Part shown: positions 38,133-54,480 of the stretch, piece after piece
Layout of the letters: each line of letters opens with the position of its first letter
Numbering within the stretch: the stretch's first letter is position 1
Source: a plasmid
Sequence record: NZ_CP090684.1
DNA: 64,000 nt
Direction: 5' to 3' (one strand)
The notes under the pieces: model-generated
Told to the model about the DNA's origin: nothing
The model's input: the letters and a program-made list of their open reading frames with translations, nothing else
Database searches by the model: none
Made by a program: the position numbers and the translations under genes

Positions 38133-38520
38133 GGTTGCTCCGTGCGGTTTAAGGGTTTCAGGCTGACCGGGACCCTAGATTCCGAGTCCCTTCGTAGGGT
38201 TTGTTTTAGCCCGACCGGCAGCTGCTTCTGTGCTGCCGCCAGTCCCCTGAGTTCGTCGTCCCGGCGACAAAGGAGCCCGTAGCCGCGCCCGGACAAGGGC
38301 GTGCCCGGAGGCCGCATGCGGAGCGCAGCCGCAGGCGAGCACCGAACGGGCGAGGACACGGCGAAGCGAACCCTTGGCCGGGCGCGGCGAAGGGCTACTG
38401 TCGCGAAAAGGGACGGCGGACTCAGGGGACTGGCGACGGCGTGTCCGCGCGAGAGGGCAAAAACGCCGCGCGGCGAGCGCCCTTCATGCGGCCGCAGGCC
38501 GCATCACTTCAGGGGTGAAT
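38133..38520 (-). repeat. leading-region hairpin element A (core hairpin plus long imperfect inverted repeat); candidate ssDNA promoter
   Basis: Core CTGACCGGGACCCTAGATTCCGAGTCCC. Arms GCCAGTCCCCTGAGTTCGTCGTCCCGGCGACA ... TGTCGCGAAAAGGGACGGCGGACTCAGGGGACTGGCG. Conserved distal block ACGCCGCGCGGCGAGCGCCC. Near-identical to element B. Confidence 0.6.
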
Positions 38521-38526
38521 GTCCGA

Positions 38527-38650
38527 AAGGGCCGAAGGCCCTTTTCGGCTCCCGCGCAAGCGGGCATATCGCTAATCATGCCGCTTGGCGGCACTAGATG
38601 GCGGCGCTGCTTCGTCTACAGCGAAGCGAAGAAAAAGGCCCTTTCGGGCC
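38527..38650 (-). terminator. two hairpin plus T-run terminators ending the upstream small-gene operon
   Basis: GGGCCGAAGGCCCTTTTC, and GGCCCTTTCGGGCC flanked by an A-run (reads as T-run on the minus strand). Confidence 0.4.
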
Positions 38651-38655
38651 TTACG

Positions 38656-38847
38656 TCAGAAACCGGTCTGCTCCCAATGCGCGCGTATTAGAAGGTACTC
38701 CCGCAGCCCGGTGCAACGTCCGTCAACGATGCCTCCACGGCGCACTCTCACCCACCCGTGTCCCATGATCGAAAGCAGCCCTCCGGTGCACTGGTGGATG
38801 GCGACAATGCAGAGTTCGACGGTATTTGCGCTGTCCGCTGTCTTCAT
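38656..38847 (-). CDS. hypothetical small protein (63 aa), translationally coupled
   Basis: ATGA overlap with the stop of 38844..39113. Confidence 0.3.
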   Translation of the reverse strand: MKTADSANTVELCIVAIHQCTGGLLSIMGHGWVRVRRGGIVDGRCTGLREYLLIRAHWEQTGF

Positions 38848-39113
38848 ACCTCGGTGCCTCCGATCCACTCCTTACCGATAAAGACATCTGCGCCGAAGGC
38901 GTCGATCACACACTCGCACGCACGCGGACTGCCGAGCAGACCGACAAGCCGCTCTATCGTCCACGCACCGTCTGCGGGCACTTCGAGCAATACTGAGCCT
39001 CCGAGGTCGCGGAGAATTAGCGGCGGGACCGCATCCGTGCTTTCGGCGCTCACGGTCAGCAGACTGTCCTTGGCGGGAACGATTTTTACACCGCAGCGAG
39101 TCGGATAAATCAC
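38844..39113 (-). CDS. hypothetical protein (89 aa, GTG start)
   Basis: AGGAGA 5 nt upstream of the GTG. Protein-like composition. Confidence 0.4.
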   Translation of the reverse strand: MIYPTRCGVKIVPAKDSLLTVSAESTDAVPPLILRDLGGSVLLEVPADGAWTIERLVGLLGSPRACECVIDAFGADVFIGKEWIGGTEV

Positions 39114-39122
39114 CTGATTCTC

Positions 39123-39305
39123 CTAGTAACCTAGCCAGTCGAGCACTTCCTTACCCTCATACTCCGGGCGATCGCCAACCTCGGCGAGAAAGGCAGAAAA
39201 GCCGCCTTCGACATCGTGGCGTCCAATTTCGGCCTCGGCTTCAGCACGCGTTACTGTCATATCGCATGCGTCTTCGTAGGTGTATGCGGTCATTCCAATC
39301 TCCAT
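39123..39305 (-). CDS. small acidic protein (60 aa)
   Basis: TGATG stop/start overlap with the upstream 187-aa gene. Asp/Glu-rich, typical of leading-region small acidic proteins. Confidence 0.35.
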   Translation of the reverse strand: MEIGMTAYTYEDACDMTVTRAEAEAEIGRHDVEGGFSAFLAEVGDRPEYEGKEVLDWLGY

Positions 39306-39868
39306 CAGTAAAGCTGCTGGGTCGTTCGCCTGATCCAGTTCCTCGCGACAGCTCCATATGCGTTCAGAGCGAGTCGCCATGCAGGCGCATTCAGGGCGAA
39401 CAGCAGATAGCGGTGCGCAGTCGGGTCGATGCCTCCAGTACGTCCGATATTCATAAGCGCGTGCGCAGCGACGAGCGGCGGAACGTCGCTTTCAGCATAT
39501 TCGGCGTCGAACTGCTCCTGTGTCATCCACTGTGTTACGACGCGTCCACGTTCGACCGCAAGTACCTGCGTCGTGGCGCGCGTCTGGTGGCTGTAGCCGA
39601 AGGACAAGCGGATCGCCGGGTTCTCGTTAGCGTCCAGGTACACCGAGCTGCGCGTAGTCGGACGCGCCGGGTCGGTTCCGGTGAGCTGGCATTCGGGCGC
39701 GTCCGGTTCACGGTTGAAGGGCTCAACGGTTGGAATGATATGCGCCTTTGTCCGGACACGGTTACCCGTTTCGGCGTGTGCATAGTGGACGAATTCCAGC
39801 GTATAGGAACGTCCGGCGCGGTCGATGTCGGCGTAGTGCTCGCGGGTGATGGTGCATGGAATTTGCAT
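39305..39868 (-). CDS. hypothetical protein (187 aa)
   Basis: Protein-like composition. First gene of a small operon. No motif recognised. Confidence 0.45.
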   Translation of the reverse strand: MQIPCTITREHYADIDRAGRSYTLEFVHYAHAETGNRVRTKAHIIPTVEPFNREPDAPECQLTGTDPARPTTRSSVYLDANENPAIRLSFGYSHQTRATTQVLAVERGRVVTQWMTQEQFDAEYAESDVPPLVAAHALMNIGRTGGIDPTAHRYLLFALNAPAWRLALNAYGAVARNWIRRTTQQLY

Positions 39869-39877
39869 GATGGTCTC

Positions 39878-40078
39878 TCAATTCTCGCGGGCGTCGAGCG
39901 CGCCCTGCAGCGCGACGGCCTGGAATGCGTTCAGGCCGGCGGCGTCGATGAACGTTTCGCGGTTGAAAATCATCACCGCGTAAACGTTGGCAAGCTCGCG
40001 CGCCTCGGCGCAAAGCGTGGGGCATTCGTTCGTGCCTTCCGGGGCCGGTGACGTGCGCGCCAGATATTGATTGCGCAC
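39878..40078 (-). CDS. small protein; a better ATG plus RBS lies 40 nt upstream in the +1 frame, so possibly frameshifted
   Basis: GTG-start ORF VRNQYLARTSPAPEGTNECPTL.... An upstream ATG with GAAAGGGG Shine-Dalgarno encodes MSLTTIEQIECAINI in another frame that meets this ORF. Confidence 0.3.
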   Translation of the reverse strand: MRNQYLARTSPAPEGTNECPTLCAEARELANVYAVMIFNRETFIDAAGLNAFQAVALQGALDAREN

Positions 40079-40161
40079 TCGATCTGCTCAATAGTGGTTA
40101 GCGACATGGCTCAGCCCCTTTCTTCCGAATTTTTGATATCCAGTGGTTTCACGTCGCGCCT

Positions 40162-40671
40162 TCAAAATCCGATCTGGCTCCAGTGAGTCACCATCTGCTT
40201 GTATTCACCGCGCTTCGCCCGAAGCCAACGAAGCATTCGCGCGACTGCGGCTCGCCTCCGCGCGACTTGTCGGAGCGCATGCGGACCGCCGCAACAGAGA
40301 TCCTCCTCTTCATCGCGTTGACTGGTTGCCTCATTAAGATAGCCTGCTGCGATCGCTCGAAGCGCCGCGTTTCCCCGTGCATGAATCGCAACCAAGTCGA
40401 ACTCTTTCCAAGGATCCTCCACCTGAAAGGCACGGGCGTACTCCGCTAGGAGCGCCCCGACGAAACTCCACTTACCTCTACGCAAGTACTTGCAAGCCAA
40501 GTCGTATGCAGACGGTCGATGGCTGGCTATGCCAATCGCTTGCTCGAGCTCGAGGTACAGCATGTGCAATCCAGGATATTGAAATCGATCTGGAACGGCC
40601 CTTTTCCTGCCATACGGTTTGAACTGGAAGCTGAGGGCATCCACCGCGTCGTGGTTCTCGATATGCGTCAT
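40162..40671 (-). CDS. hypothetical protein (169 aa)
   Basis: Protein-like composition. No motif. Confidence 0.45.
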   Translation of the reverse strand: MTHIENHDAVDALSFQFKPYGRKRAVPDRFQYPGLHMLYLELEQAIGIASHRPSAYDLACKYLRRGKWSFVGALLAEYARAFQVEDPWKEFDLVAIHARGNAALRAIAAGYLNEATSQRDEEEDLCCGGPHALRQVARRRAAVARMLRWLRAKRGEYKQMVTHWSQIGF

Positions 40672-40737
40672 GGGCGACTCCTATTCATCGTTAGGTTGGA
40701 CGGCCCCGATCGCTCAGGGCACGCTTCGAGTTACCTT

Positions 40738-40938
40738 TTAGAGTGGCATCGGCGACCAAGCGCCGGGGGCGTGGCGGTACAGCGTGACGCGCTTGCGCTG
40801 GCCGTTCACCACCGTCTCCACGCGGACCGCGCGAACATCGTCTTCCTCGCGGCGCCACCGGTGCAGTACACGGATTTCCGCGTTCAGGTCACAGCCCAGA
40901 AAGAAAGCGGCGATGCGGCGAAGAAGATTCGATTTCAT
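40738..40938 (-). CDS. small basic protein (66 aa), copy 2
   Basis: Product identical to 37932..38132. Preceded by hairpin element B. Confidence 0.5.
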   Translation of the reverse strand: MKSNLLRRIAAFFLGCDLNAEIRVLHRWRREEDDVRAVRVETVVNGQRKRVTLYRHAPGAWSPMPL

Positions 40939-41325
40939 GGTTGCTCCGTGCGGTTTAAGGGTTTCAGGCTGACCGGGACCCTAGATTCCGAGTCCCCTCG
41001 TAGGGTTTGTTTCTGCCCGACCGGCAGCTGCTTCTGTGCTGCCGCCAGTCCCCTGAGTTCGTCGTCCCGGCGACAAAGGAGCCCGTAGCCGCGGCCGGAC
41101 AAGGGCGTGCCCGGAGGCCGCATGCGGAGCGCAGCCGCAGGCGAGCACCGAACGGGCGAGGACACGGCGAAGCGAACCCTTGGCCGGGCGCGGCGAAGGG
41201 CTACTGTCGCGGAAAGGGACGGCGAACTCAGGGGGCTGGCGAAGGGCGCTGCACACCGCGCGAGGGCAGAAACGCCGCGCGGCGAGCGCCCACAAGCGGC
41301 CGTAGGCCGCTTCACTTCAGGCGTT
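40939..41325 (-). repeat. leading-region hairpin element B
   Basis: ~440 bp near-identical to element A, then diverging. Followed upstream by a terminator hairpin AGGGGCTCAGCCCCT at about 41330-41352. Confidence 0.6.
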
Positions 41326-41498
41326 CGGGAGAAAGGGGCTCAGCCCCTTTCGTCCGGCGAAGCCGGGCCACGGACACGTGTGGTCCGACCACATGAGATC
41401 AGGGGCGATTTCGCCTTGGGTCCATTGCAGCGCTACGGTGCGAATTGCCGCGTTTCCACCGCAGGCGCCTCGAGATCGCTTGGCGAGCTGGAGTGCAC

Positions 41499-42110
41499 CT
41501 AGCGCACTTGATCGAGCGGTCGGCATTGCGCCAGCCTTGACCGAAAGTGCTGCTCGAAGGCTTCCGCCAATACCGGGTCATTCCATGCGATCACCACGTT
41601 CTCGCTGTTCGATTTTGCGCCCGCCGCGGTGTAGTTGATGCTTCCAGTCTGGACGCTCCGGTGGTCCAGTATCATTGCCTTGTCGTGCATTAAGCGATAT
41701 CGGTCCACGACGCATATGGCAGCACCGGCGCGCGCGAGATAGTCGAGCCCGCGGCGGATGTAGCCATCTCGATCGTTCGCGATGCTTTCGCCATAGTCAA
41801 CGGCGATTGCAACGGGGACCCCCGCTCGTGCCTTCGCTGCCAGCGCCTCGATTAGCGGCCGATACGTCATTACGTACGCCAGGACGTGAATGGAACGATG
41901 CGCCGAACCCACGCCGTACAAGACGAGATCCATCCCCTTACCGTCCGGAGAAAAAGCATATGAGGTCACACGACCCTCGGGGGCTGCGGTCGTGAGCACC
42001 GTTGCGACGCTCGCGACTGGCGAGGCAAATGCCGCCAACGCGATCGCAAGCTCGGCAATACATCCGGCGATCACTGCGGGGGCTGTCCATGACAGCAGCT
42101 TTAGTGTCAT
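41499..42110 (-). CDS. nuc: periplasmic PLD-family endonuclease (Nuc-like)
   Basis: Signal peptide MTLKLLSWTAPAVIAGCIA. HKD motif LMHDKAMILD...GSINYT (H-x-K-x4-D-x6-GSxN). ATGA coupling with the upstream gene. Confidence 0.7.
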   Translation of the reverse strand: MTLKLLSWTAPAVIAGCIAELAIALAAFASPVASVATVLTTAAPEGRVTSYAFSPDGKGMDLVLYGVGSAHRSIHVLAYVMTYRPLIEALAAKARAGVPVAIAVDYGESIANDRDGYIRRGLDYLARAGAAICVVDRYRLMHDKAMILDHRSVQTGSINYTAAGAKSNSENVVIAWNDPVLAEAFEQHFRSRLAQCRPLDQVR

Positions 42111-42580: not shown

Positions 42581-42583
42581 AGG

Positions 42584-44155
42584 TCACCGTTCAGTGGCGT
42601 TGGTCGATACAAGTTCCCTTGGCAGCATCACCCTGACCTGCTCCCGCACGGCCGCCAAACCTTCGGCGCTTGCGAGGTCATTGAAATCGGTCGGACGCCC
42701 GACGAGGGAGTTGAATACAGGCACGATCGCCTGGCATCTGAGGATCCGTGCTGCTTCGGCGGCTGAGTCGACACCTCTGTTGGACGTCGTGGACCGGACA
42801 TGCTTTCCGTCGCTCCCCGTGATCACATCAACGGTCACAGAACGAGCAACCCCGCAGCGGCATTCCACCGCAAGCCGGTACTTTCCGTGTGCGCTCGCAT
42901 GCCATTGCCCGTCCGCGATCGCATCGACGATTCTCACGGTTCGAGTCGCGTCCCGGGGTCCCGCGTTGACCTTGAAAGAGCATTCGGTCTCAGGCGCCAC
43001 GCTACCTAGTTCGGCAATCCGCGTGACGGCTGTCTCAAGAAAAAACTGGTCGTTGTCGGCGCAAACGAGCTTCGGTTGCCGCCGCGGCAGGACGTGCACG
43101 AGGTCTTTCGCAACCGCAACGAGGTTGCCTGCGTCGAAGCACACAACCACCGGTAGGCCCGTCGCTTCGTAAATCGACGCTCCCGTTGCGTACCCTTCCG
43201 AGAGCAGCACCGCCGGCGCGCTTACGAGGTCAGCGACACGTCGCGCGCCGATCAGGTGAAAGGCACCGGTCTTTCGCGCTCCCTTCGTGAATAGCTTGCT
43301 TCCGTCGGGACCGAGCGCCTGGACAGTTCGCAGCCGGTCTTGAATATCCCGTCCGGGAGCGATCAAGTATTCGTCGGATGTCGACTTGAAGTGCTCCAGG
43401 TTCAGCAGGGTAATCATGTCCATACCCCGGCCGCTCGCAATCCGGAGACCGTGCGCGGCTACCCCTTTGCGGGCCAAATACGGGTGCGCGTCACATTCGA
43501 CTTCCGGCAGGGTCACGAGCACCTTTAATGCCCTCGCCGCTATCTCGCGCTGCTCCTCGATCACCTTTGCAGCGCGCGCCGCACGGCGATCGCTATCGGC
43601 CGCCTCGAGTGCGGCGCGTTGCTCGCGTGTCAGGCGTCCCTTCTGAAAGCGCCACGGGCCAGATGCCCCCTTAAAATTTCGGATGTAACCCCGCCACTCC
43701 CCACCAACACGCTCGAGCTTGTAGCTTCCGCTGTTGCGTGGTCCGGCCGGCGTTTCGACTTTGGCCGTATGCCAGGCTCCATCCGCACGTACGGTGTCGG
43801 GGATAAGCCCAAAGGTACGCATCGCGAGGCTGAAGTCCGCGATCGCTTCCTCTGGGTCAATGCCGGCATTCGCAAGCACGGTCTCATCGACGATCCACTC
43901 GGCAAAAGGCGTCCGATCCATCGACGCGTCGATCCAGCAAAGGCGCCGATCGTAATCGAGATGCGCCCCGAGAGACCGAGCCTTCGGAATGTCTCTGGGG
44001 GGTACCGCAAGGTAAATTCGCTGCGCTTGCGATGCGTTGGACTTGATGTTTCCTTGCTGCCGTGACGATTTTCCCTGCGGAACTGAGGCGAGAAAGCGCT
44101 CAACGGCCCTGGCCTGCCCACTAGTCGAACGTTTTGCCATGGTTGTGCTGTACAT
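42584..44155 (-). CDS. Toprim-domain primase-like protein
   Basis: Toprim signatures LLSEGYATGASI (conserved Glu) and VCADNDQF (DxD). N-terminal region LYLAVPPRDIPKARSLGAHLDYDRRLCWIDA. Confidence 0.55.
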   Translation of the reverse strand: MYSTTMAKRSTSGQARAVERFLASVPQGKSSRQQGNIKSNASQAQRIYLAVPPRDIPKARSLGAHLDYDRRLCWIDASMDRTPFAEWIVDETVLANAGIDPEEAIADFSLAMRTFGLIPDTVRADGAWHTAKVETPAGPRNSGSYKLERVGGEWRGYIRNFKGASGPWRFQKGRLTREQRAALEAADSDRRAARAAKVIEEQREIAARALKVLVTLPEVECDAHPYLARKGVAAHGLRIASGRGMDMITLLNLEHFKSTSDEYLIAPGRDIQDRLRTVQALGPDGSKLFTKGARKTGAFHLIGARRVADLVSAPAVLLSEGYATGASIYEATGLPVVVCFDAGNLVAVAKDLVHVLPRRQPKLVCADNDQFFLETAVTRIAELGSVAPETECSFKVNAGPRDATRTVRIVDAIADGQWHASAHGKYRLAVECRCGVARSVTVDVITGSDGKHVRSTTSNRGVDSAAEAARILRCQAIVPVFNSLVGRPTDFNDLASAEGLAAVREQVRVMLPRELVSTNATER

Positions 44156-44645
44156 GAGACACCTCCTTTCTCAGAGGCGGATCGCGTCGAGCGGCAGGCA
44201 GCCGACCACAACGGTCAGCGCCGCTGCATGAAATTCTTTGCTTATCCCCTGCCCCGAAACCTTCCCGTTGCGTACCATCGCGTTCTCCGTTGGTTTTGAG
44301 CCGACCGGAACCCAAGATTCTGAGTCCCGGCGTACCGGCCGAGTCGACGCAGCGCTACCCGCAGCTGCTGCCGCCGTTCCCCTGAGTTCCTCGTCCCGCG
44401 AACTAGTCAGGTGAGGTGACCCGTCGGTCAAGGGGGCAAGCGAGGGGATAGGGGCGGGCAGTCGCGTAGCGACAACACGGCCCCGAGCGCCTTGACCGAC
44501 GGGCCGCCGAACCTACGGTCGCGCGCAAGGACGAGGACAAAGGGGGGGACGGAGCTGCAGGGCAGGAATACCGGAGGCTCGGCGCCGCGCGGCGAGCGCC
44601 CATCGCGCGAAGCGCGACGCGACAGCGCGTCCGGATGGACGAAGA
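44156..44645 (-). repeat. leading-region hairpin element C
   Basis: Core GCCGACCGGAACCCAAGATTCTGAGTCCCGGCG, GCTGCCGCCGTTCCCCTGAGTTCCTCGTCCCGCGA, GTCAAGGGGG...CCTTGAC inner inverted repeat, and distal GCCGCGCGGCGAGCGCCC. Confidence 0.55.
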
Positions 44646-44650
44646 GCGAA

Positions 44651-44676
44651 GCGAAAAAAAAGCCCCGCTGGTGCGG
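44651..44676 (-). terminator. rho-independent terminator
   Basis: GCCCCGCTGGTGCGGGGC hairpin. On the minus strand it is followed by T8. Confidence 0.55.
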
Positions 44677-44957
44677 GGCAAAACATGCTGCTTCCGAGGG
44701 CACGGCACGAGCAAACCGCAGCATGCTAAGAGCAGGAAAGAGCGAAGGTGAGCCTTTCCGGGAGCGCAGCGAGCGGCCGGCGAGGCGCTGGCAGCCCCGC
44801 CCGAAGGGCGCGGGGCGAGACTCCGCAGGAGGCTCGACGCTTAGGCCGCGCATCGCGCGGACGTAGCGCAACATAGCCGGTCTTTGCGGAGCAAAGACGC
44901 CCCAAGTGAATTCTTCGCATACCTCCTCAATTCGGTTACGTAAGCCAAGAGTGGCGT

Positions 44958-45524
44958 TCAATTTGCAACTCGCCGCTTCCGTTTCAAAATAAGAAACCGT
45001 ACACCTAGGCACACGAACAGGCCGCCCAGCAACAGCACACACATCGCCGCGTATCCAACTAGCACCCTTTTGACGAGATACCAATCGCGAGCTGCAGCGG
45101 TACAGCCCACAACCTCGCGGAAATCCGTCAGATCCTCCAGTGAGGGCACCACCCAACCAACTAAAGAAGCAAAGTGCGGAGCGAGTATCCATAGCAGTGC
45201 ACCAGCAGTCGCGATTGCGACGATATACGCGAAGAATGCGATCGCCCGACGCCGAAAAGACCACGATGTATCTGGCTGCTCGAGAGCCAGTTGGATGTGG
45301 TATCGGTCGGCGAGCTTAACGCTCGCGAATTCTTCCTCTATCGAACGACGCACGTCCGGCACCACCACACCATCCGATTCTGAGGAACGACTCGATGAAT
45401 CCCAGGCTCGCGATGGATATATGGTCGCCCCGGTCGCCGTGCGTAGTGCGTCGCGAAGGCGACCGGCACTGCGCACGGCGACGTGTTCCGGGGTGACGTG
45501 CTCATTCTGATTGGTCTCTCTCAC
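44958..45524 (-). CDS. two-TM membrane protein (188 aa, GTG start)
   Basis: Two hydrophobic helices in the C-terminal half. sigma70-like promoter upstream. Confidence 0.4.
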   Translation of the reverse strand: MRETNQNEHVTPEHVAVRSAGRLRDALRTATGATIYPSRAWDSSSRSSESDGVVVPDVRRSIEEEFASVKLADRYHIQLALEQPDTSWSFRRRAIAFFAYIVAIATAGALLWILAPHFASLVGWVVPSLEDLTDFREVVGCTAAARDWYLVKRVLVGYAAMCVLLLGGLFVCLGVRFLILKRKRRVAN

Positions 45525-45560
45525 GCATTAATTTCGTCCCGCTGGCGGGACGGTGGATAA

Positions 45561-45589
45561 ATTTTAATCACCTTTGCACATGATTGCAA
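45561..45589 (-). promoter_or_regulatory. sigma70-type promoter TTGCAA-N17-TAAAAT
   Basis: On the minus strand, TTGCAATCATGTGCAAAGGTGATTAAAAT sits ~40 nt upstream of the GTG start. A TTATCCACC DnaA-box-like sequence lies just downstream. Confidence 0.5.
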
Positions 45590-45767
45590 TTGATATGTAT
45601 GGAGCGGTTCACGCCCGAGGGAGGGGGATCCAAGGGGGAACCGGGTCGGGGTTCCCCCTTGGTCGGCGTCCGCCGATATCCCGCTCGGCGCACGGCCCGG
45701 ACGATTTAGCGCCGCCAGGCGCGTTGAGGAAGGCGCCGTGCGACGCTGGATGGCGCGAGGTAGTGCA

Positions 45768-45798
45768 CAAAAAAAAACCCCGTCACCGACGGGGCAAA
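45768..45798 (-). terminator. rho-independent terminator after the ParB-like gene
   Basis: CCCCGTCACCGACGGGG hairpin. On the minus strand it is followed by T9-T10. Confidence 0.6.
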
Positions 45799-45826
45799 TT
45801 TGCGACTGCTCAGAGATATCGTTGAA

Positions 45827-48082
45827 TTAAGCCGCCGGCCGGCTTCCAGCGAGCACGTTCGGCGTCGGCGTCGCAAACGGCCACGGGAATCGCGCCGATT
45901 GAGTGACTCGGCCTCCCGCAAATTCCGTCGGCGCGACGTCGGCTGGCTTCACGCCGGTCTCAGCACCGTCCGGACTATCCGAGACCGTGTCAGGTTGCGC
46001 CGGTTCATCACCCAGCACTTCCTCGTGGGCTCCGAGATTGTCCGCCGTCGCGAGCTCGCCGTCCGCATCCTCCTGCTCATTACCGTCATCGCCGAAATAG
46101 GTTCGCGCGGTACGGACTTCGGCAGCAGCCATGAATTCGGGAAGCCAGTTCTTGTCGGCAAGCAGTTTTTCCGCTTCCTGCGCCGCCTCTGCCTTCTTCA
46201 TTTTCCCCAACCTCGCCCCATGCTCCTTCGAAATGACGTCACTCACGATCGCAACGATTCGATCCTTCGAGACATGATTAAGGTACGACTCGCAGGTGGG
46301 CTTCCAGTACTTCGTGAGGTCAAGTTCCAGAGCGCCGGCGAGCGCATTGATAGCATTCGGTTCTTCCGTGCGGCTCACACCATTCAGACTCAGAGCCGTG
46401 CAAACGGCGAGAATGTTCAGGACTACCGCTTGCGGCTGTTCGAGCAACCATCCGAACAGTTCGTTCGGGTTTTTCGGAATCATGCGAGTGACCGCCAGCA
46501 CCGACCGTGCAAGCTGGTCGTACTGGGGCAACTCCTTGATGCCGGGCACAGCTCGATCCGCGCTGTACATCGGCTGCTGTTCCTTGATCTGCACAGCACT
46601 GAGGTCGCTATAGTGCTCATAGACGAACTCCAGCAACAGTCGGTGTGCGACAGCGACGAGCGCAACGCCGGGGTTCGCAACAAGCGCGGTTTGAACCGCT
46701 GCCGTGCGGTGCGACGTCAGATTGAGCAGCAGTTTCTCCGAATGCAGCCCCTTAACCTTCTTGGTCAGGCTACGCGGGACCGACTGACCTGCCTCTTCCA
46801 TCATCGCACGCGCTTGCGCCCGATTCTCGCGACGCACCAAGCCGCGCACGATTTCAAGTGCTCCGTCGTAGCCGACCGTGACGATCGCCCCGCTCACTTT
46901 CATCTGCTCCGAGGTGAACTCTCCGTCGCGGTCGTCCATTTCCTGCATGATCGCGTAAAGCTGATTGCACTCGCCGTCCAGCTTTTCCCGGTCCTCGTCG
47001 CTGAGGTACGCAGCATCGCCCACTTCGGCATCGTAGCTTGCCTCGATTTTCTCGCTGAGTTCGTCGGCCCGCATTTGAGCTTCTTCGTATTTTGCCTTTT
47101 CGTCGCTAGTGAGCGGAACCGGAGTGGAATAAAGTTGCGTAAACTGGTTGCGGTCGTCATAGTCGAAGGTCGGTCGGGCTTCAACCCAATTCCAGCCTTC
47201 GGCCTTGATCGATTCGACCGTGCAGGCGATTTTCTCATCGAACAATCGAGCCAGCAGCTCACGATTGACGATGAAACCGTCATCTTGCTCCGCGAACAGG
47301 TCGCGCTCCACCTCTCCCCCGGCTGCTTCGTATGCGGCGACAGTCACGAATCGCACCATCCGGTCCCCGAACGACAGTTTCTCGCCTTTCAGCACATTGC
47401 GCAGTGCGTTAGGGCTCTGGTTCCAGTGTCCCTTTGCACCGAACCACGCCGCTTCCTGTCGCTCGTGGTTGTCGGTGATGGCAAGCGCCTTGATCTGTTC
47501 GAGGCTGATGACGTCCGCAGCAAACAGTTCAAAGAGCTTCGGGGAAACGTTCGCGAGCTTCAATCGACCGGCGACGACCTTCGGACTGACATTGAAGACT
47601 GCCGCAATGAACTCAGGGCTTCGGCCCTCGTCTGCAAGCGCCTTGTAGGCAGCGAATTGGTCTGCAGGGTGCGGGGGTACGTGCAAGTCATTTTCTGACG
47701 CACTAGCAAGGATCGCCTGCGCCTCCGAAATCTCGATGCAACGCACTTCATCGTCCATCGACATGTAGCCGCGCTCGACGTTGAACAGGAACGCTTGACG
47801 GCGCGTTTCCCCCGCGTCGACGCCCCACTCCTGCGCCTTCTTCGCCCTCTGCGGCATTTTATGCACAACGAGGTTCTGTAGTTGACCGACAGCAAGCATG
47901 TTGTCTGCGATTGCCACAATGGTCGCTTGATCGCGCTTCTTCTTACGCTGGTTATACGGCGAAGCGACCAGCCGTTTCAACGGAATCATCACTTCCCGTT
48001 GCCCTGCGCGAAGCATGTTCGGCATGTCGGCGGGCAGTGCATCGGCGTTCACGTTGGCGTCTTGTGCAATCACGGTTTTCAT
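45827..48082 (-). CDS. ParB/Srx-fold (ParB-like nuclease domain) protein, 751 aa
   Basis: N-terminal ParB-like block PLKRLVASPYNQRK...IADNMLAVGQLQNLVV. GAGGAA Shine-Dalgarno before the ATG at 48082. Long acidic C-terminus. Confidence 0.65.
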   Translation of the reverse strand: MKTVIAQDANVNADALPADMPNMLRAGQREVMIPLKRLVASPYNQRKKKRDQATIVAIADNMLAVGQLQNLVVHKMPQRAKKAQEWGVDAGETRRQAFLFNVERGYMSMDDEVRCIEISEAQAILASASENDLHVPPHPADQFAAYKALADEGRSPEFIAAVFNVSPKVVAGRLKLANVSPKLFELFAADVISLEQIKALAITDNHERQEAAWFGAKGHWNQSPNALRNVLKGEKLSFGDRMVRFVTVAAYEAAGGEVERDLFAEQDDGFIVNRELLARLFDEKIACTVESIKAEGWNWVEARPTFDYDDRNQFTQLYSTPVPLTSDEKAKYEEAQMRADELSEKIEASYDAEVGDAAYLSDEDREKLDGECNQLYAIMQEMDDRDGEFTSEQMKVSGAIVTVGYDGALEIVRGLVRRENRAQARAMMEEAGQSVPRSLTKKVKGLHSEKLLLNLTSHRTAAVQTALVANPGVALVAVAHRLLLEFVYEHYSDLSAVQIKEQQPMYSADRAVPGIKELPQYDQLARSVLAVTRMIPKNPNELFGWLLEQPQAVVLNILAVCTALSLNGVSRTEEPNAINALAGALELDLTKYWKPTCESYLNHVSKDRIVAIVSDVISKEHGARLGKMKKAEAAQEAEKLLADKNWLPEFMAAAEVRTARTYFGDDGNEQEDADGELATADNLGAHEEVLGDEPAQPDTVSDSPDGAETGVKPADVAPTEFAGGRVTQSARFPWPFATPTPNVLAGSRPAA

Positions 48083-48760
48083 AGCATTCCTCAAAATTAA
48101 CATTGAAGTTGTGACGGGACCGCCGGGCCCCAAGATTCTGAGTCCCGGCGTAAGCCGTTCTGTCGAGTCGGCGGGCCGCGCTCCGCAGCTGCCGCCGTTC
48201 CCCTGAGTTCGTCGTCCCGCGACGATCGGAGCGAGGACCAGTGCATCGTCAAGGGGTGACGCGCGGGTCGGTGCGGGAGGGAGCGCAGCGACTGACACGG
48301 TCCCGCGCGCCCTTGACGTTGCGCTGGCCGCAGCTACAGTCGCGGAGGTGGACGGCGAACGAGGGGGACGGAGATGAAGGCAGCACCCGTACCACGACGA
48401 GCCAGAACGCCCCGCGCGGCGAGCGCGCTATCCGAGCGGCGCGACGTCAGGAGCGCCGAGAGGCTGGAGGGATGGCCCGCGCCGGGGCAAGTCCGCGGGA
48501 CGCGGCGCAGCCCCAAGAGCGGAAGTGTTTGGTCTCCGGGCCGCCGCGTGCGCGGCTTGCGTGTCGGCCGGTAGTGCCGGCCGGCGCGCAAGGTGCGGCG
48601 GCCCGGCTGGCTTCCGGGCCCAGGTCCACCGTCAGTGCAGCGTCGGTAGGTCCGCGCCTTCTTCCGTTCCCACGCCCCACGAGAATTCGGCCAATACGTA
48701 TGGGGCGAGCGTCGCGCTCGCCCAACGATAGTTACGCGCTTTGCTCAGTGCGATCTCGGT
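48083..48760 (-). repeat. leading-region hairpin element D
   Basis: Core GCCGGGCCCCAAGATTCTGAGTCCCGGCG. Arms CCGTTCCCCTGAGTTCGTCGTCCCGCGACG / CGTCGCGGAGGTGGACGGCGAACGAGGGGGACGG. Inner GTCAAGGGGTGACGCGCGGG / CCCGCGCGCCCTTGAC. ~85-90% identical to element E over ~500 bp. Confidence 0.6.
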
Positions 48761-48923: not shown

Positions 48924-48924
48924 A

Positions 48925-49278
48925 TCAGACCACCTCAGAGACAGGGAAACCGGCTTCAGTGAGCTCACGGCGCGCATCGTCATCCCAGGTCGTCGGCGAC
49001 TCGGACTCACAGCGATACGCGTAGGCGATTGCCGCTTCGCGTGCGTCGGCCGACAGACCGCCGGTTACTTTGACCACGACCTCCCAGTATGTCCCGAAGT
49101 CGTGGGCGCTGCTCTTGATGAACAGGCTGGCACCGTCGGGGGGTTCGCCCAAGGTGCGCCTGATTTGGTTGATGAAGGCCGTGCATTCGGCTCGGCTACG
49201 CTCCAGGTAGCGCATGTCGCCCACTTGCGCACATGCCTCATCACATGGCGCTGGTCCAATCTCAATCGTTTCCACCAT
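48925..49278 (-). CDS. hypothetical protein (117 aa)
   Basis: Protein-like composition. Follows element E. Confidence 0.45.
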   Translation of the reverse strand: MVETIEIGPAPCDEACAQVGDMRYLERSRAECTAFINQIRRTLGEPPDGASLFIKSSAHDFGTYWEVVVKVTGGLSADAREAAIAYAYRCESESPTTWDDDARRELTEAGFPVSEVV

Positions 49279-49911
49279 CGTACAGCTCTCCTAAAAAATA
49301 TAGACTGACCGGGCCCCAAGATTCTGAGTCCCGGCGTGAAAGGTTCTGGCGAGTCGGCGGGCCGCGCTTCGCAGCTGCCGCCGTTCCCCTGAGTTCGTCG
49401 TCCCGCGACGCCTCGAGCGACGAGCCGGCGACGCGTCAAGGAGTCAAGCGCGGGGTGGGCGCGGGAGGGAGCGCAGTGACCGACACGGACCCCGCGCGCC
49501 TTGACGCGGCAGAGGCCGACGCTACGGTCGCGGGGAATGGACGACGAACGAGGGGGACGGGGGTGCGGACAGTGCTTGCTCCGTGACGAGCCGGAACGCC
49601 CGCGCGGCGAGCGCGCTATCCGAGCCGGCGCGACGCGAGGAGCGCCGCGAGGCTGGAGGGATGGCCCGCGCCGGGGCAAGTCCGCGGCACGCGGCGCAGC
49701 CCCAAGAGCGGAAGTGTCCGGATTCCGGGCCGCCGCGTGCGCAGCTTACGTGCCGGCCGGCAGCGCCGGCCGGCGCGGAAGGCGCTGCCCGGCGGCCCGC
49801 ATGTCACCGGCGATCCCGGTCGAGGACTCGGATCGCCGTCCCTGCCAATTGCGGTCCGATGGCGGTCCCATGGAGTGCGGTCGAGCGAGTTGAAGCTCAT
49901 GAAGATGACGG
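49279..49911 (-). repeat. leading-region hairpin element E
   Basis: Same core and arms as D. Distal half near-identical to D. Confidence 0.6.
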
Positions 49912-50325: not shown

Positions 50326-50384
50326 GATGGATTGCGTGACGCGGACACCGGATTGAGTGCCCGCGTCCGATCAGTTTTTTCAGT

Positions 50385-50918
50385 TTAGAGGTCCGCCCAT
50401 GCAACGTCGGCTTTCGTTTCCACTTCGCCGCCGAACATATGCTCGACCTGATACCGCACGCGCGCACGTGCACCGTCGATCACAAGCGTTCCGCGACCAA
50501 AGTAGCGGCCCAGCAGAGCTCGTTGTTCTTCCGCCCGGAGCTTGCCGCGCCACTTACCGTTGCAGTTCCCGATGCGATTTACGAGGAATAGGCGCAGTTT
50601 CGCTGCCTGTTCGTGCTGGTTCGGCGGCGGCGTCAGCACAAGCACGCCGTCCCGGTCAATCGGCGCGAGGTTTGTGTCTCGGTAGGTGCGCTTGTATTGG
50701 GTTGGGCCGATAGCCAGCCCCCAATCGACCGTATGCTGAATCCGTTGCCGTGCCTCTGATGAAGAGCGGGCAACCACCGAATCGTATGCGCGGCCGGCGC
50801 GCGACTTCCGGATATTGAAGAACGGGACACCCGGTCGCGATTCGAATCGTTCGACGTCGATTTGATAGTGGCCATGCTTGCCACCACCCTCCCATCGCTC
50901 AACTAGTTGCGCAGTCAT
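50385..50918 (-). CDS. hypothetical protein (177 aa)
   Basis: Protein-like composition. Overlaps the stop of the upstream gene. Confidence 0.45.
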   Translation of the reverse strand: MTAQLVERWEGGGKHGHYQIDVERFESRPGVPFFNIRKSRAGRAYDSVVARSSSEARQRIQHTVDWGLAIGPTQYKRTYRDTNLAPIDRDGVLVLTPPPNQHEQAAKLRLFLVNRIGNCNGKWRGKLRAEEQRALLGRYFGRGTLVIDGARARVRYQVEHMFGGEVETKADVAWADL

Positions 50919-51418
50919 GCTGCCTCCACACGACGGCCGAACAGCATCAGTGCGACTGCTTCGAGGCGTGCTGCTGTATCGATAAGGACGCCATCGTCGT
51001 CGGCAAGCACGGTGATGTAGCTGGATTCGCCGCGTGGACGACCAGCCGCATCTCGCGCAACGTGTACTACACTGACGCCGGCCGCCTGCAGCCCGCGCCG
51101 GGCATATTCCGCAAAGGTGTCTGCCTCGCCGTGCTCCCTTTCAACCCTTCGCATACGCTGCTGAATGCGTTCGATCTTGCGGACGGCAGCGCGCAATTCG
51201 CCCAATTCCGGGGTGAGACTGTTCAACACGACGCGATGGCCGAATGCCACTGCATGGTCGCGACTGACGAAGGCGCGAAGCTCAATCGTCCCCGAATACT
51301 CGTACCCCACCGCACTGACCACCGCGCGTTGAATCTCAACGACGAGTTCAGTAACGTTGTGGTCCCGTTCGACGTACAGCATGGCATGCAGTTGGGGTTT
51401 CGTTGCGCGTCGTGTCAT
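50915..51418 (-). CDS. hypothetical protein (167 aa)
   Basis: Start at Met40 of ORF 50915..51535, with GGAGC before the ATG. Follows element F. Confidence 0.4.
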   Translation of the reverse strand: MTRRATKPQLHAMLYVERDHNVTELVVEIQRAVVSAVGYEYSGTIELRAFVSRDHAVAFGHRVVLNSLTPELGELRAAVRKIERIQQRMRRVEREHGEADTFAEYARRGLQAAGVSVVHVARDAAGRPRGESSYITVLADDDGVLIDTAARLEAVALMLFGRRVEAA

Positions 51419-51810
51419 TGCATAGCTCCGTGGATGTTTGCTGACCGGGCCCCAAGATTCGGAGCCCTTCGTAGGGGTTTCCTTTCGGCGGACGCTGATT
51501 GGGTCGCAGCGTTGCCGCCGTTCCCCTGAGTTCATCGCCCTGCGACTCCGGAAGTTCGAGGAGGCGTCGCGTCAAGGAGGCAAGGGCGGGGGCGGTGCGG
51601 GACGAAGCGCAGCGAAGGACACGGCCCCGCACGCCTTGACGCGAGGCTGACGAGGACTACGGTCGCAGAACTGGGCGATGACGGGGAACGGTGCGTAACG
51701 CGTGACCTGCGATCGCGCGAAAGGCCCGCGCGGGTAGCGCCTGTTCGCGCAGCGAAGCGGAGCGACTGGAATGGGCGGCAAGCGCCGGGCGAAGCCCTGG
51801 AGCGTTCAGT
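51419..51810 (-). repeat. leading-region hairpin element F
   Basis: Core GCTGACCGGGCCCCAAGATTCGGAGCCC. CCGTTCCCCTGAGTTCATCGCCCTGCGAC. GTCAAGGAGGCAAGGGCGGGGG...CCTTGAC. Confidence 0.55.
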
Positions 51811-52196
51811 TTGTTTCCCGGTCCGTGGCGAGTTTCCTCGCCACGGATCCGGCTCGATGCCGACAGCTTTACCGCTGAAAGGCCTGATATTGGGCAGCAA
51901 CGACCACTTAGGTCGCGCGTGTGGCGCTATGGTCGCCCCCGATCCCCCGACGCGTACTCCGAAATCGAGGGGGCGACCGCGCAAACCGCCCTCCTCTCGC
52001 GCTTTCGACGCTATTGGCGCCTGGTCCCGCATCGGCCCGATGCGACGAGCCGCAGCGAGTGCGAGTACCCTGCAATGGCAAAAAACCCCACAGCTCCGAC
52101 CGCGCGCACTTACGGGCGACCGTCGCTGCCGCCATCTCGGTGTTGTTTGACTGAAGGTGCTGGGCACGGACCTTGAGAATTCCAGCACTCGTTTGC

Positions 52197-53990
52197 TCAA
52201 AGCACGAACGGCAGGTCTGCTTGCGCACTGGAGGTCGTTGCCTTGTGTGCCCATGCAGTGCGCGCCGGCGACGGCAACGCCGCAAAACGCACCGCGCGGC
52301 GAAGCAGATCAGCAACGGCATAGTCGAGCGTTAGTCCAAGCCGATCTTTGAAATCTGTACGACGCGCGATCTCGTCGTGTTCTCGTTGCTGTGCTCGTGA
52401 CAATGTCAGCGTGCCATAGTTTAGGTACCAACGGTACCCAGCCGTGATGCCTCCAGGGAAGAATCCGGCATCATGCATTTCGACCAGGCGCTCGAATTCG
52501 AAGTCCAGGATCATCTCGGCCGATTCCTCGTCGACTTCGAACCGCTTACCGGTCGGCACCTCCCAAGTGGTTCGCCCGCCCTTGAGATGGTGAACTTTCC
52601 GAGCACATGGAGAGTCTTCAGTCAAAGCCTCGAACAGCGGATCTCGGAACCCTGTCCACTGATCCGCGGTGTCGTCCCAGTGCTCTCCGACATGCAGAAA
52701 CATAGGCTCCGGCATTGGCTGCGGCGCGACCGGCATAACGTCCGGAACATCGTATCGAACGCCGTTGCAGTAGATGTCACGATAGTCAGCCCATATCGCG
52801 AAGGGTGGTGCCAGGCCTTGAAGCGATTGCATAGCATCGACGGCAATCATCATCGTCAAGGGCAACGTTTGAAATTTGGGCCGCGATCCAGTGCGCTTTG
52901 CGCGGACCAGCTCGTCTCGGTCGATCGTCATCATGTACCGCACAAGCTCTCGCACAGTGGCCGCGTTGAATGTGTCCGGCTCTATGCAGATGTAGCCTTC
53001 TTTAATGGTACGACCGACCCAATTTCGGCGGGACCAGTCATACCGAATCGCACGGATGAACTTGTTGAGGCGGTTCAGTCCACTCGCATACGCGTAGCGA
53101 TCCTCATCAAATTTGATCATCTCTTCGAGCGATCGGTCTTCCGCCTGTTGGCACGTCCAACATCCTGTCCGCGCGTCGCAGTGCCCCCTGCGCTTCCGTT
53201 TTCCGGCCGACGCCTCTTCGAATGAGAGGTCTGAGACGATCGCGCAGCTGCTGTTGCCTGCGTGCGCATAGATTCGCGAGGTTTCTCGGAAGTCCGTGTA
53301 GGTAGACCGAAGACCTGACGTTACTTCGCCGATGTACTCCCAGACGTCCTCAGTCTCCCAGTCAGCGATCACACACAGCGTGAGGTCACCCTCGTCGTTG
53401 CGCACGGGTGTATCGGCACGATCGCCACGGGCTTGCATGCCGGCCTTCCGCTTCGCGCTTTCGGCAAACCTCGATCCGAGGCATACGACCGGCTCAGCAT
53501 ACCCCTGCTGCTTCGCAGCGCGCGCGAGTTGATTTCGGAACACTCTGGAAGGCTCGATCTTCAAGCTCACTGAGCAGTCCGAGTTCGTACCTGCATAGCT
53601 TGGGAGCGCTCGACCGCTGAGAATCGTGACCTGCCAAGAGGTGGCCAGTGACGGCGCGACCGTTTGCACGTGGACCCTGACGTTGTGCCGCTTTCCGTAC
53701 GCGTGCATTTTCGCCAACTCCCGCTGGGCGTGCGCTACGATCTCAGGCGACTCGACCCCGGTGTCAGCGGTAACGACGTAGACGACCGCCTCGCCTCCTT
53801 CTGCCGCGTGTCGACGGGCGGCTTCGAGAGTCAGCGCCGCTACGACGCCACTGTCCTTACCGGCGCTGAACTGGCAGATCGCGATACGGCGCTCGTGAAA
53901 TAGCCGCCGCAAGGCCGCGACGGCACGCTCTACTCGCTGATCAAGCGTCGGCCGTTGTTGAAGATGAGGAAACAAATCGATCGTTTGCAT
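52197..53990 (-). CDS. PAPS-reductase-like (PP-loop ATPase) family protein, IbrA/DndC-like, 597 aa
   Basis: PP-loop motif QFSAGKDSGVVAALT (SGGKDS-like). Long C-terminal extension. Confidence 0.6.
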   Translation of the reverse strand: MQTIDLFPHLQQRPTLDQRVERAVAALRRLFHERRIAICQFSAGKDSGVVAALTLEAARRHAAEGGEAVVYVVTADTGVESPEIVAHAQRELAKMHAYGKRHNVRVHVQTVAPSLATSWQVTILSGRALPSYAGTNSDCSVSLKIEPSRVFRNQLARAAKQQGYAEPVVCLGSRFAESAKRKAGMQARGDRADTPVRNDEGDLTLCVIADWETEDVWEYIGEVTSGLRSTYTDFRETSRIYAHAGNSSCAIVSDLSFEEASAGKRKRRGHCDARTGCWTCQQAEDRSLEEMIKFDEDRYAYASGLNRLNKFIRAIRYDWSRRNWVGRTIKEGYICIEPDTFNAATVRELVRYMMTIDRDELVRAKRTGSRPKFQTLPLTMMIAVDAMQSLQGLAPPFAIWADYRDIYCNGVRYDVPDVMPVAPQPMPEPMFLHVGEHWDDTADQWTGFRDPLFEALTEDSPCARKVHHLKGGRTTWEVPTGKRFEVDEESAEMILDFEFERLVEMHDAGFFPGGITAGYRWYLNYGTLTLSRAQQREHDEIARRTDFKDRLGLTLDYAVADLLRRAVRFAALPSPARTAWAHKATTSSAQADLPFVL

Positions 53991-54480
53991 GGCTGCTCTA
54001 TCCGCATGTTGGGTGGCGCCGGGCCCATAGATTCCGAGTCCCGGCGTAAGCCGTTCTGTCGAGTCGGCGGGGCCGCTGCTGCGCCTGCCGCCGTTCCCCT
54101 GAGTTCGTCGTCCCGCGACGATCGGAGCGAGGACCGGAGCAACGTCAAGGGCGACGCGCGGGGCGGTGCGGGATGGAGCGCAGCGACTGACACGGCCCCG
54201 CGCGCCTTGATGGTGCGCAGGCCGCAGCTACAGTCGCGGAGATGGACGACGAATGAGGGGGAAGAAGGAGTCAGGGCGTGACGTCGCGCGAGACAGAACG
54301 CCGCGCGGCGAGCGCCCTTTCACGCGGCAAGCGCCAGCGGCGCCGCGTGACACAATTTCGGCCTTTTAGTGCGCAGGACGGTAGAACAGCGCACTCGTCA
54401 GATACCGTCGCGCGGTACGGGTGGGGCTGGCGCACCGGTCCACCCGTACCGCGCGACGGCTGGTTCCTAACGCGGATCCG
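53991..54480 (-). repeat. leading-region hairpin element G
   Basis: Core GGCGCCGGGCCCATAGATTCCGAGTCCCGGCG. Arms CCGTTCCCCTGAGTTCGTCGTCCCGCGACG / GTCGCGGAGATGGACGACGAATGAGGGGGAAG. Distal ACGCCGCGCGGCGAGCGCCC. Confidence 0.6.

Follow-up and report, generated by a model that had tools for sequence, protein, structure and literature searches.

What is the function of a large GC-rich element that recurs, in related copies, in front of one operon after another in the same part of a plasmid? This question is raised by a stretch of 64,000 nucleotides from a plasmid (sequence record NZ_CP090684.1), referred to here in its full length as the window. Between positions 38,133 and 54,480 it contains seven copies of such an element, A to G, ahead of genes on the minus strand. 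A first-pass annotation made from the sequence had proposed that they are promoters like Frpo of the F plasmid, which act on the DNA strand entering a recipient by conjugation. The comparison of sequences described here makes it likely that the elements are promoters working only while the incoming plasmid strand is single-stranded. This reading is based on a conserved signature, covariation, folding of the + strand, promoter geometry and the leading-region context. The repeats, their structure, the covariation, the strand bias, the conservation of the promoter and the linkage to leading regions were observed directly, and the strand was assigned by homology.

When the window was searched with a profile built from family members, exactly seven hairpins were found, all on the + strand and none outside 38.2–54.3 kb, which bears out the family of seven that had been noticed at first. 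An ungapped direct-repeat search places the start of a 41-nucleotide core at 38226, 41032, 44361, 48182, 49368, 51505 and 54078. The element consists of a proximal motif, an imperfect hairpin of ~200 nucleotides and a distal palindromic block, and one element stands ahead of each minus-strand operon. Seven matches to the proximal motif, CCGGnnnCCWAGATTCnGAG, are present in the window (0.06 expected by chance in a pattern search), one in each element on the side of the gene. The distal block, CCGCGCGGnnAGCGC, is present once per element, with seven exact occurrences in the window and two with one mismatch against 1.1 expected. The elements adjoin the start codons of 37932–38132, 40738–40938, 42584–44155, 45827–48082, 48925–49278, 50915–51418 and 52197–53990, as had been described, except that the conserved part of copy C begins only ~145 nucleotides from the start codon of its DUF5710 gene. 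The space between the proximal motif of copy C and this DUF5710/Toprim gene holds a possible small open reading frame of ~38 codons with a GGAGA ribosome-binding site (44156–44290, minus strand). Copies A and B are 95% identical, and most other pairs share 59–71% of their positions. For copies D and E the identity is about 81% over ~535 nucleotides and 78% over the core, lower than the 85–90% first estimated. A duplication of 300 nucleotides (37932–38231 and 40738–41037, 99% identity) comprises a gene for 66 amino acids and the proximal part of elements A and B; these direct repeats are 2.8 kb apart, and recombination between them could delete unit B.

The seven copies, with their promoter-like hexamers and the genes that they head, are as follows; all element features are on the + strand.

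38225–38430, +: hairpin of copy A (nhmmer E = 1e-24; single-stranded DNA fold −85.6 kcal/mol, z = −9.9); −35 TTGGCC at 38374–38379, −10 TACTGT at 38396–38401; proximal motif 38167–38186 and distal block 38466–38480 (pattern searches); heads 37932–38132 and the open reading frames downstream of it.
41031–41233, +: hairpin of copy B (profile search); −35 at 41180–41185, −10 at 41202–41207; proximal motif 40973–40992, distal block 41275–41289; heads 40738–40938, 40162–40671, a DUF3717 gene, 39305–39868 and 38844–39113 (gene list from the annotation of a near-identical plasmid).
44364–44560, +: hairpin of copy C (profile search; z = −5.1); −35 TTGACC at 44492–44497, −10 TACGGT at 44514–44519; proximal motif 44305–44324, distal block 44585–44599; heads the primase-like DUF5710/Toprim gene 42584–44155 (Pfam and PHROG primase matches) and a PLD-family gene, 41499–42110.
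48182–48390, +: hairpin of copy D (profile search; z = −6.6); −35 TTGACG at 48313–48318, −10 TACAGT at 48335–48340; proximal motif 48123–48142, distal block 48412–48426; heads the ParB-like gene 45827–48082 (product of 751 amino acids).
49367–49575, +: hairpin of copy E (profile search; z = −5.9); −35 at 49501–49506, −10 TACGGT at 49523–49528; proximal motif 49309–49328, distal block 49600–49614; heads 48925–49278.
51507–51684, +: hairpin of copy F (profile search; z = −5.1); −35 at 51636–51641, −10 TACGGT at 51658–51663; proximal motif 51445–51464, distal block 51726–51740; heads 50915–51418 and 50385–50918.
54085–54270, +: hairpin of copy G (profile search; z = −4.2); −35 TTGATG at 54207–54212, −10 TACAGT at 54229–54234; proximal motif 54019–54038, distal block 54301–54315; heads the DndC-like PAPS-reductase gene 52197–53990 (NCBIfam DndC, 2e-32).

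The products of these units thus include a primase-like Toprim protein, a PLD-family protein, the ParB-like protein and the DndC-like PAPS reductase, besides many small proteins of no assigned function.

When the hairpins are folded as single-stranded DNA, their minimum free energies range from −57 to −86 kcal/mol and their z-scores, relative to 200 dinucleotide shuffles, from −4.2 to −9.9, with 0/200 shuffles equally stable; copy D was also folded at full length. The stable, long and imperfect stem-loop of the + strand that had been proposed is found in all seven copies. To examine the pairing across the family, the plasmid-type copies and those of integrative and conjugative elements (ICEs) were analysed separately, because a mixed MAFFT alignment shifts the two subfamilies by one base around CCCGCGAC. 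RNAalifold recovered only part of the stem from the mixed alignment, in which the subfamilies are misaligned, and was abandoned in that form. Consensus structures were computed for each subfamily with a relaxed non-compatibility penalty. For the 26 plasmid-type sequences, among which are the seven window copies, 87.1% of the cells are paired, compared with 36–44% in slid controls, and 20 pairs with 104 cells have changed on both sides; the covariation score of 0.202 (controls about 0.05) is reached by 0/500 shuffles. The ICE-type set (46 sequences) gives 94.3% paired cells (slid controls 36–45%), 16 pairs with 118 cells changed on both sides and a score of 0.188 (controls 0.03–0.05), again reached by 0/500 shuffles. 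The compensatory changes lie mostly in the pairs that flank the −35 hexamer and along the spacer. Judged from these alignments, the base pairing of the stem is selected.

The strand on which the structure is selected can be read from the same sequences. With DNA parameters the + strand folds more stably than its complement in 61/61 representatives, by 10.6 kcal/mol on average; with RNA parameters it does so in 59/61. Isolated G·T pairs within helices outnumber A·C oppositions by 128 to 10, and on the ICE consensus structure by 200 to 52. Since a G·T on the + strand is an A·C on the mRNA sense, this indicates selection on the transferred and transcribed strand and not on the mRNA, and the main hairpin was rejected as a structure of the mRNA 5′-untranslated region on the grounds of this strand bias. 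An RNA reading was kept for the proximal motif only, whose bias is opposite, which argues against a simple artefact of base composition. Of the short blocks shared by plasmid and ICE copies, the motif, with its AGATTCnGAG core, is the best conserved, and it folds better on the mRNA sense in 50/53 family members. The fold has a stem GGGNCUC/GGNNCCC and a GAAUCUW loop, about 25–35 nucleotides before the start codon, and one C-G to U-A exchange in the stem distinguishes the subfamilies. It is probably a stem-loop of the 5′-leader RNA, as far as the sequences tell. The "core hairpin" of the first-pass annotation is therefore a conserved motif, as was claimed, but not a hairpin of the + strand, its pairing being better on the mRNA sense. 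In Rfam, no family matches the window at the gathering score, and with E up to 1 (36–56 kb) or up to 5 (around an ICE copy) only weak terminator-like, microRNA and small nucleolar RNA matches far below that score are seen. The weak ncS54 and anti-hemB matches at 44655–44745 are merely an intrinsic terminator.

Transfer polarity was deduced from the block of genes on the other side of the origin of transfer (oriT), where a slash marks nic.

29342–32818, −: MOBF (TrwC-type) relaxase gene (Pfam TrwC 2.8e-65, and AAA_30; order and strand as for mobF of R388).
33288–35315, −: type IV coupling protein gene (TrwB-type; Pfam TrwB_AAD_bind 4.1e-66).
36231–36253, +: oriT core, inverted repeat GCACG-gta-CGTGC followed by GTCATGTCT/G.

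Two small genes in the position of trwA lie on the minus strand in the same transfer block as the relaxase and the coupling protein. The core at 36231–36253 is the best-conserved block of the oriT region when three related plasmids are compared, and the interval of 36.1–36.4 kb originally given for oriT could be narrowed to this R388-like inverted repeat and nic. Around nic, 11/13 bases of the window agree with R388 (IncW, MOBF) GTGCGTATTGTCT/A, and the R388 sequence used for IR2 plus nic, GGTGCGT-ATTGTCT/A, was found at 100% identity in the R388 record. The order trwC-trwB-trwA-oriT is common to R388 and the window, with these three genes on one strand and the inverted repeat and nic on the other; in both, the inverted repeat is followed 8 nucleotides later by GTCT/ on the template strand of the leading genes, and the leading genes are directed toward oriT. 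With the profile of the hairpin, nhmmer finds no match in R388. Because the R388-like inverted repeat and nic are on the + strand, together with the gene topology of R388, nic is predicted between 36252 and 36253 of that strand. By homology, the + strand is the transferred strand, as had been supposed from the start, and the DNA from 36.25 kb upward would enter the recipient first. This strand is the template for the minus-strand operons, so that the seven copies all belong to the leading region and to the transferred strand, which also serves the downstream genes as template.

Each of the seven copies contains the signature TTGnnn-16 nucleotides-TAnnnT on the + strand, in the 3′ arm of the hairpin. 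It reads TTGACG-16-TACAGT in copy D and TTGGCC-16-TACTGT in copies A and B; the other copies combine TTGACC, TTGACG or TTGATG with TACGGT or TACAGT. The −35/−10 pair that the first-pass annotation had looked for in the stem is thus present, oriented such that the + strand would be transcribed toward the downstream gene and oriT. In duplex DNA the same hexamers would point away from the gene. The signature is also found at six other loci, in every copy located by the 5′-arm motif except one that is cut by the end of the locus. A non-circular scan of one genome per species was then made with a pattern taken from the 5′ arm and the loop only, CCTGAGTTCnTCGnCC-N70–100-GACACGG, leaving the promoter out. 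At least 120 loci were matched. Among the matches listed, 139/147 family copies have TTGnnn-16-TAnnnT at a fixed offset, 11–12 nucleotides after GACACGG, within the stem and directed into the downstream genes; two of the eight exceptions are chance matches, and most of the others are single point changes in the −10 hexamer. TTG and TA...T are at least 90% conserved, and the middle −10 position is variable (0.5). The spacer is kept in length but not in sequence (conservation 0.4–0.8). The −10 hexamers observed are TACAGT, TACGGT, TACTGT, TATGGT, TACGAT and TAAGGT. In the sequences compared, this conservation of hexamers and spacer follows the sigma-70 pattern. A simple consensus scan found no conserved sigma-70-type promoter on the minus strand inside the elements.

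Base-pair probabilities averaged over 50 representatives show how the signature is placed in the fold. The −35 hexamer is paired with a probability of at least 0.9, but the adenine at −11 with only 0.2. The spacer is mostly paired, mismatches included, and the −10 is followed by four to five pairs (CGCGG). A conserved 5-nucleotide bulge with a pairing probability of 0–0.3 lies on the non-template side 6–10 nucleotides after the −10, and beyond it is a duplex of about 20 base pairs. The folded hairpin may therefore resemble a partly pre-opened promoter, and a −10 flanked by GC pairs (GC-TACnGT-CGCGG) would be expected to melt poorly in duplex DNA.

These features suggest a mechanism. TrwC would nick the + strand at about 36252/36253, and the strand would enter 5′ to 3′, with 36.3–55 kb arriving first. 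On arrival, each ~200-nucleotide inverted repeat would fold into its long imperfect hairpin, the 3′ arm supplying the non-template strand of a sigma-70 promoter (TTGnnn-16 nucleotides-TAnnnT) and the 5′ arm the template. Host RNA polymerase would bind the hairpin and transcribe the + strand out of the base of the stem into the minus-strand operon and toward oriT, which is the arrangement known from Frpo. The start is expected at the 5-nucleotide non-template bulge, and the transcript would have a leader of ~120–140 nucleotides carrying the conserved proximal motif. Synthesis of the second strand would remove the hairpin and leave hexamers that point away from the gene, so that expression would stop. 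The transcripts may also prime synthesis of the complementary strand, as shown for Frpo.

The proposal that other plasmids and ICEs of the Burkholderiales should be searched was followed, and up to 13 copies per plasmid and one copy in Tn4371-type ICEs were found. A blastn search of PLSDB (72,556 plasmids) with copy D matched 109 plasmids, of which 85 are typed as conjugative. They belong to Burkholderia (80), Mycetohabitans (6), Paraburkholderia (5), Pandoraea (5) and Ralstonia (4), with partial matches in Pseudomonas, Delftia and Citrobacter. Ten copies are present in pBPSE01 (B. pseudomallei), 13 in P. dioscoreae pI and three in a Pandoraea plasmid; each of these plasmids has its copies on a single strand and on the leading side of the mobF-coupling protein-oriT block, where they head operons on the same strand. 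Copy F of the window has positional orthologues at 26099 of pBPSE01 and 35873 of P. dioscoreae pI, ahead of the same genes. The positional orthology between plasmids of different genera indicates that the array is old and not the result of a recent burst. A copy on a Mycetohabitans plasmid, in a region riddled with insertion sequences and with no close downstream gene, looks like a remnant and is uninformative. Two other GC-rich gaps of 500 nucleotides in the leading-region array of the Pandoraea plasmid (locus L130, 7427–7936 and 12620–13136) have no profile match and may hold further, unrelated classes of hairpin.

The Pseudomonas and Citrobacter matches belong to Tn4371-type ICE backbones (relaxase-traF-DUF2840-parB-parA-repA...int), in which one copy lies directly upstream of a DUF932-ParB-like operon. 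The oriT of this ICE family is the traF-traI spacer, as shown experimentally (PMC11448139), which places the ICE hairpin again on the leading side and on the template strand. Among the matches listed, 100 of the 132 chromosomal hairpins have a DUF932 homologue starting less than 400 nucleotides downstream in the correct orientation; most of the remaining ones either belong to plasmid-type arrays or are followed by the gene of a ParB-like protein or of a small DNA methyltransferase. The gene families behind the hairpins in the window and its relatives (DUF932, ParB-like, orphan methyltransferases, primase-like and DndC-like) are typical of leading regions. These ICE backbones with the hairpin are inserted in clinical megaplasmids, such as a 530-kb plasmid of P. 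aeruginosa (locus L004, 11991–12204), and in a Citrobacter IncC plasmid (locus L005, 11991–12205).

Would a signal for DNA synthesis explain the hairpins equally well? They could be ssi signals for complementary-strand synthesis only, read by a primase or primosome (host PriA/DnaG or the plasmid Toprim protein encoded at 42584–44155). A structure selected on the transferred strand would suit such a role, and so would the distance of 1.2–3.9 kb between copies, which is like that of lagging-strand priming sites. In addition, a primase-like protein is encoded within the same region, and Frpo was first isolated as an ssi (ssiD; PMC11541004 supplement). We nevertheless consider this explanation unlikely, because a primase or PriA site needs neither a TTG-16-TA...T pair with sigma-70-type conservation at fixed spacing nor a position at constant distance from the ribosome-binding site and start codon of a downstream gene for which the arriving strand is the template. 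Priming through transcripts of RNA polymerase is compatible with promoters on single-stranded DNA, and is not a true alternative to them.

A second possibility, to which we give slightly less weight still, is that the elements act in duplex DNA as a cruciform, as the operator of a regulator or as an ordinary promoter in the + direction; transcription from the latter would yield a short RNA that runs through the distal block and is antisense to the adjoining operon at its 3′ end. In the duplex, the hexamers do read as a normal promoter on the + strand, and some copies have a downstream hairpin followed by a T-run on that strand. The distal block contains a palindrome of 8–12 base pairs with a CCGCGCGG core, extending up to CGCCGCGCGGCG, which occurs once in each element in the manner of an operator, and could indeed be one for a regulator of duplex DNA. 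It is confined to the plasmid subfamily, however, and the ICE-type copies keep hairpin and hexamers without it. A duplex promoter also does not explain why the opposite arm co-varies with the spacer and the −35 flank, and the preference for G·T over A·C matters only when one strand folds alone. Finally, the poor melting expected of the −10 and the constant orientation relative to oriT across plasmids and ICEs speak against action in the duplex.

Very improbable is the view that the hairpin is an RNA structure (a 5′ leader or a 3′ stabiliser of mRNA) or a generic REP/BIME/MITE-like repeat spread by transposition: the elements are multi-copy, GC-rich and intergenic, the reverse complement of copy D also folds well (z = −4.0), and the proximal motif does look RNA-level, but on the mRNA sense the wobbles become A·C mismatches and stability is lower in every representative, intrinsic terminators end the upstream units ahead of the hairpin, no Rfam family matches, the copies have one orientation on the leading side of oriT only with none in the other 47 kb of the window, they are positionally orthologous across genera and not recently dispersed, and the chromosomal copies listed mostly stand directly upstream of the ICE DUF932 gene (100/132). 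A dispersed repeat of the REP/BIME/MITE type was rejected in view of the uniform orientation, the 85/109 plasmid matches that are conjugative and the linkage to gene classes, and, in line with the original proposal, the elements belong to the leading regions of conjugative plasmids and ICEs and are not scattered over chromosomes.

Several observations weigh against the conclusion that the elements are promoters of single-stranded DNA. RNA polymerase binding, the transcription start site and inactivity in double-stranded DNA are, like the primer role, what we infer and not what we observe. The nic site rests on similarity (11/13 bases) and topology. Covariation was computed from related sequences, and the consensus structures come from the same alignments, so that the comparison with slid controls is inflated, and G·T was permitted when these structures were derived. 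The −35 hexamer TTGGCC of copies A and B is weak. The hexamers can also be read as a moderate double-stranded promoter firing away from the gene (9/12 in copy D), and such an outward promoter may be an additional activity. The distal block has no role in the proposed mechanism. Lastly, a hairpin on the IncP plasmid pJS3066 (locus L006, 11991–12203) is flanked by IS21 and by chromate-resistance genes in an accessory region and lacks a downstream gene; it is probably a remnant.

The remaining features of the locus concern the boundaries of the units and the side of the array nearest to oriT.

44662–44679, −: intrinsic terminator (terminator scan), which ends the unit upstream of copy C just past the distal end of the element.
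38635–38652: similar terminator site (terminator scan).

The sole unit of the array without a hairpin is 44958–45827 (minus strand). Its gene 44958–45524 is preceded on its own strand by a site resembling a conventional promoter, TTGCAA-17-TAAAAT at 45589–45561, and is flanked by intrinsic terminators at 45795–45777 and 44679–44662; the unit looks like a later insertion with ordinary duplex expression. The first gene beyond oriT, 36430–36745, is on the + strand, so that the incoming strand cannot serve as its template. The annotations of pBPSE01, P. dioscoreae pI and the Pandoraea plasmid have a gene at this place with the same orientation, and in R388 the place is taken by stbABC. For the wider open reading frame 36835–37521, no Pfam match was found. 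The window is ~97–99% identical to the B. multivorans plasmid NZ_CP048444.1 up to the distal end of element E (~49782), where the two diverge. The methyltransferase gene of NZ_CP048444.1 beyond this point has no tblastn match in the window, and that plasmid carries an IS5 insertion near unit A. The position of the divergence suggests, from this one comparison of sequences, that operon cassettes are exchanged at the repeated elements.

The promoters of single-stranded DNA demonstrated to date are all from enterobacterial plasmids of the IncF and IncI groups, and the usual way to find such promoters is a BLAST search for similarity to Frpo. Opinion can be evenly divided on the broader proposition that the present family is a previously unrecognised and very widespread class of such promoters, common to MOBF plasmids of the Burkholderiales (in arrays of 7–13) and to Tn4371-type ICEs of many Beta- and Gammaproteobacteria, and that ICEs too express establishment genes from the incoming strand. 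The concept of single-stranded DNA promoters is already established and would remain unchanged; it would be extended to ICEs by a new, well-constrained class. The same solution would then exist with unrelated sequence in GC-rich Betaproteobacteria, including Burkholderia plasmids from cystic fibrosis isolates and B. pseudomallei, and in the Tn4371 family of ICEs, by which catabolic and resistance genes are disseminated, megaplasmids of P. aeruginosa and an IncC plasmid of Citrobacter being among the recipients. More than 100 diverged copies allow the pairing, the strand of action and the promoter geometry to be read from comparison, and yield predictions for mutations of the −35 stem, of the adenine at −11 and of the bulge at the start site. 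If the reading is true, covariation alone would give design rules: a paired −35, an unpaired −11 adenine and a 5-nucleotide non-template bulge at the start site that mimics the open complex. The repeated cassette of an RNA-level leader stem-loop, a DNA-level hairpin and a distal palindrome might in that case be a junction at which operons are exchanged between the leading regions of plasmids. For annotation, the element marks leading regions, transfer polarity and early-expressed operons, probably for anti-defence or establishment, in unannotated elements.

How do these elements compare with the single-strand promoters already known? Frpo/ssiD was shown to be one by Masai and Arai (1997), as cited in later papers. 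Such promoters were shown experimentally to head early operons in F and pESBL (PMC9849209, PMC12672017); in F, Frpo1 heads ygeA-ygeB and Frpo2 heads ssb-yfjA-yfjB (PMC9849209). Samuel et al. (2024) list 13,089 Frpo homologues in 6,006 elements, with several Frpo-like candidates per island (PMC11541004), and pESBL has six single-stranded DNA promoters of three sequence classes, one per induced operon, with starts mapped by 5′-rapid amplification of cDNA ends (5′-RACE; PMC12672017, 2025). The opinion that an array with one such element per gene unit had not been described is therefore outdated, given the six mapped promoters heading six operons of pESBL and the work of Samuel et al. In our search of the literature (leading-region DUF932, single-stranded promoters of Burkholderia; coverage mostly outside subscription journals) no description of the present elements was found.

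The term "Frpo-like" holds for function and architecture, but homology in sequence to Frpo/ssi, judged with BLAST by Samuel et al. (2024), was not detectable. No IncF or IncI plasmid is among the 109 PLSDB matches obtained with blastn, and nhmmer finds in the 15.5-kb leading region of F only a best E of 0.65, located elsewhere and not significant. The ColIb Frpo1 and F ssiD sequences give no nhmmer match, and the published Frpo, Frpo′ and Frpo* sequences no significant one. A resemblance by eye of F 'TTTTGAGTTTCGGGAGCC' to the proximal motif and 5′ arm did not survive the profile search. The Frpo* candidates from a conjugative element of an insect-gut metagenome (Samuel et al. 2024, Supplementary Table 2) are low-certainty, GC-rich and intergenic hairpins, and have CTTGnnn-15/16-GGCTAnnnT in the 3′ arm as in the Burkholderiales family. 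Frpo*1 gives a weak profile match with the same order of motifs, AGCGCA..TGCGG..GAGGAnACGGC..CTTG..GGCTA, at E = 0.13–1.1 against only 6 kb, which is not significant. These candidates lack the defining 5′-arm motif CCTGAGTTC of the Burkholderiales family, and any relationship is at most very distant.

Classes 2 (ardA/klcA) and 3 (M.EcoGIX) of pESBL are also hairpins unrelated in sequence, with reconstituted −35 and −10 boxes, and each stands at the head of a single early operon; with the class 1 promoters included, one leading region holds an array of six, the same layout of one promoter per unit as in the window. They are enterobacterial and their starts were mapped by 5′-RACE, in contrast to those predicted for the Burkholderiales family. 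Since F carries homologues of both classes (PMC12672017), similarity to them was judged indirectly: the 15.5-kb leading region of F has no match to the profile, and no IncI or IncF plasmid was matched by blastn.

Much is also shared with class 1, that is, Frpo1 and Frpo2 of F and ssi1–3 of ColIb-P9/pESBL. These are also long (~200–330 nucleotides) imperfect hairpins of the transferred strand in the leading region. In both groups, −35 and −10 are in the stem, several copies occur per plasmid, and the copies lie upstream of operons directed toward oriT. The genes downstream agree as well: ygeB of F codes for a DUF932 protein and yfjB for a ParB-like protein, the two families that follow the Burkholderiales and ICE elements. 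Unlike class 1, the Burkholderiales family is GC-rich, belongs to Betaproteobacteria, reaches 13 copies per plasmid and is also present in ICEs, and the conserved proximal motif borders its hairpin on one side, with the distal palindromic block on the other in plasmids. Activity has been demonstrated for Frpo, and the elements described here are filed, by their sequence, as a putative new class within the known kind of single-stranded DNA promoters.

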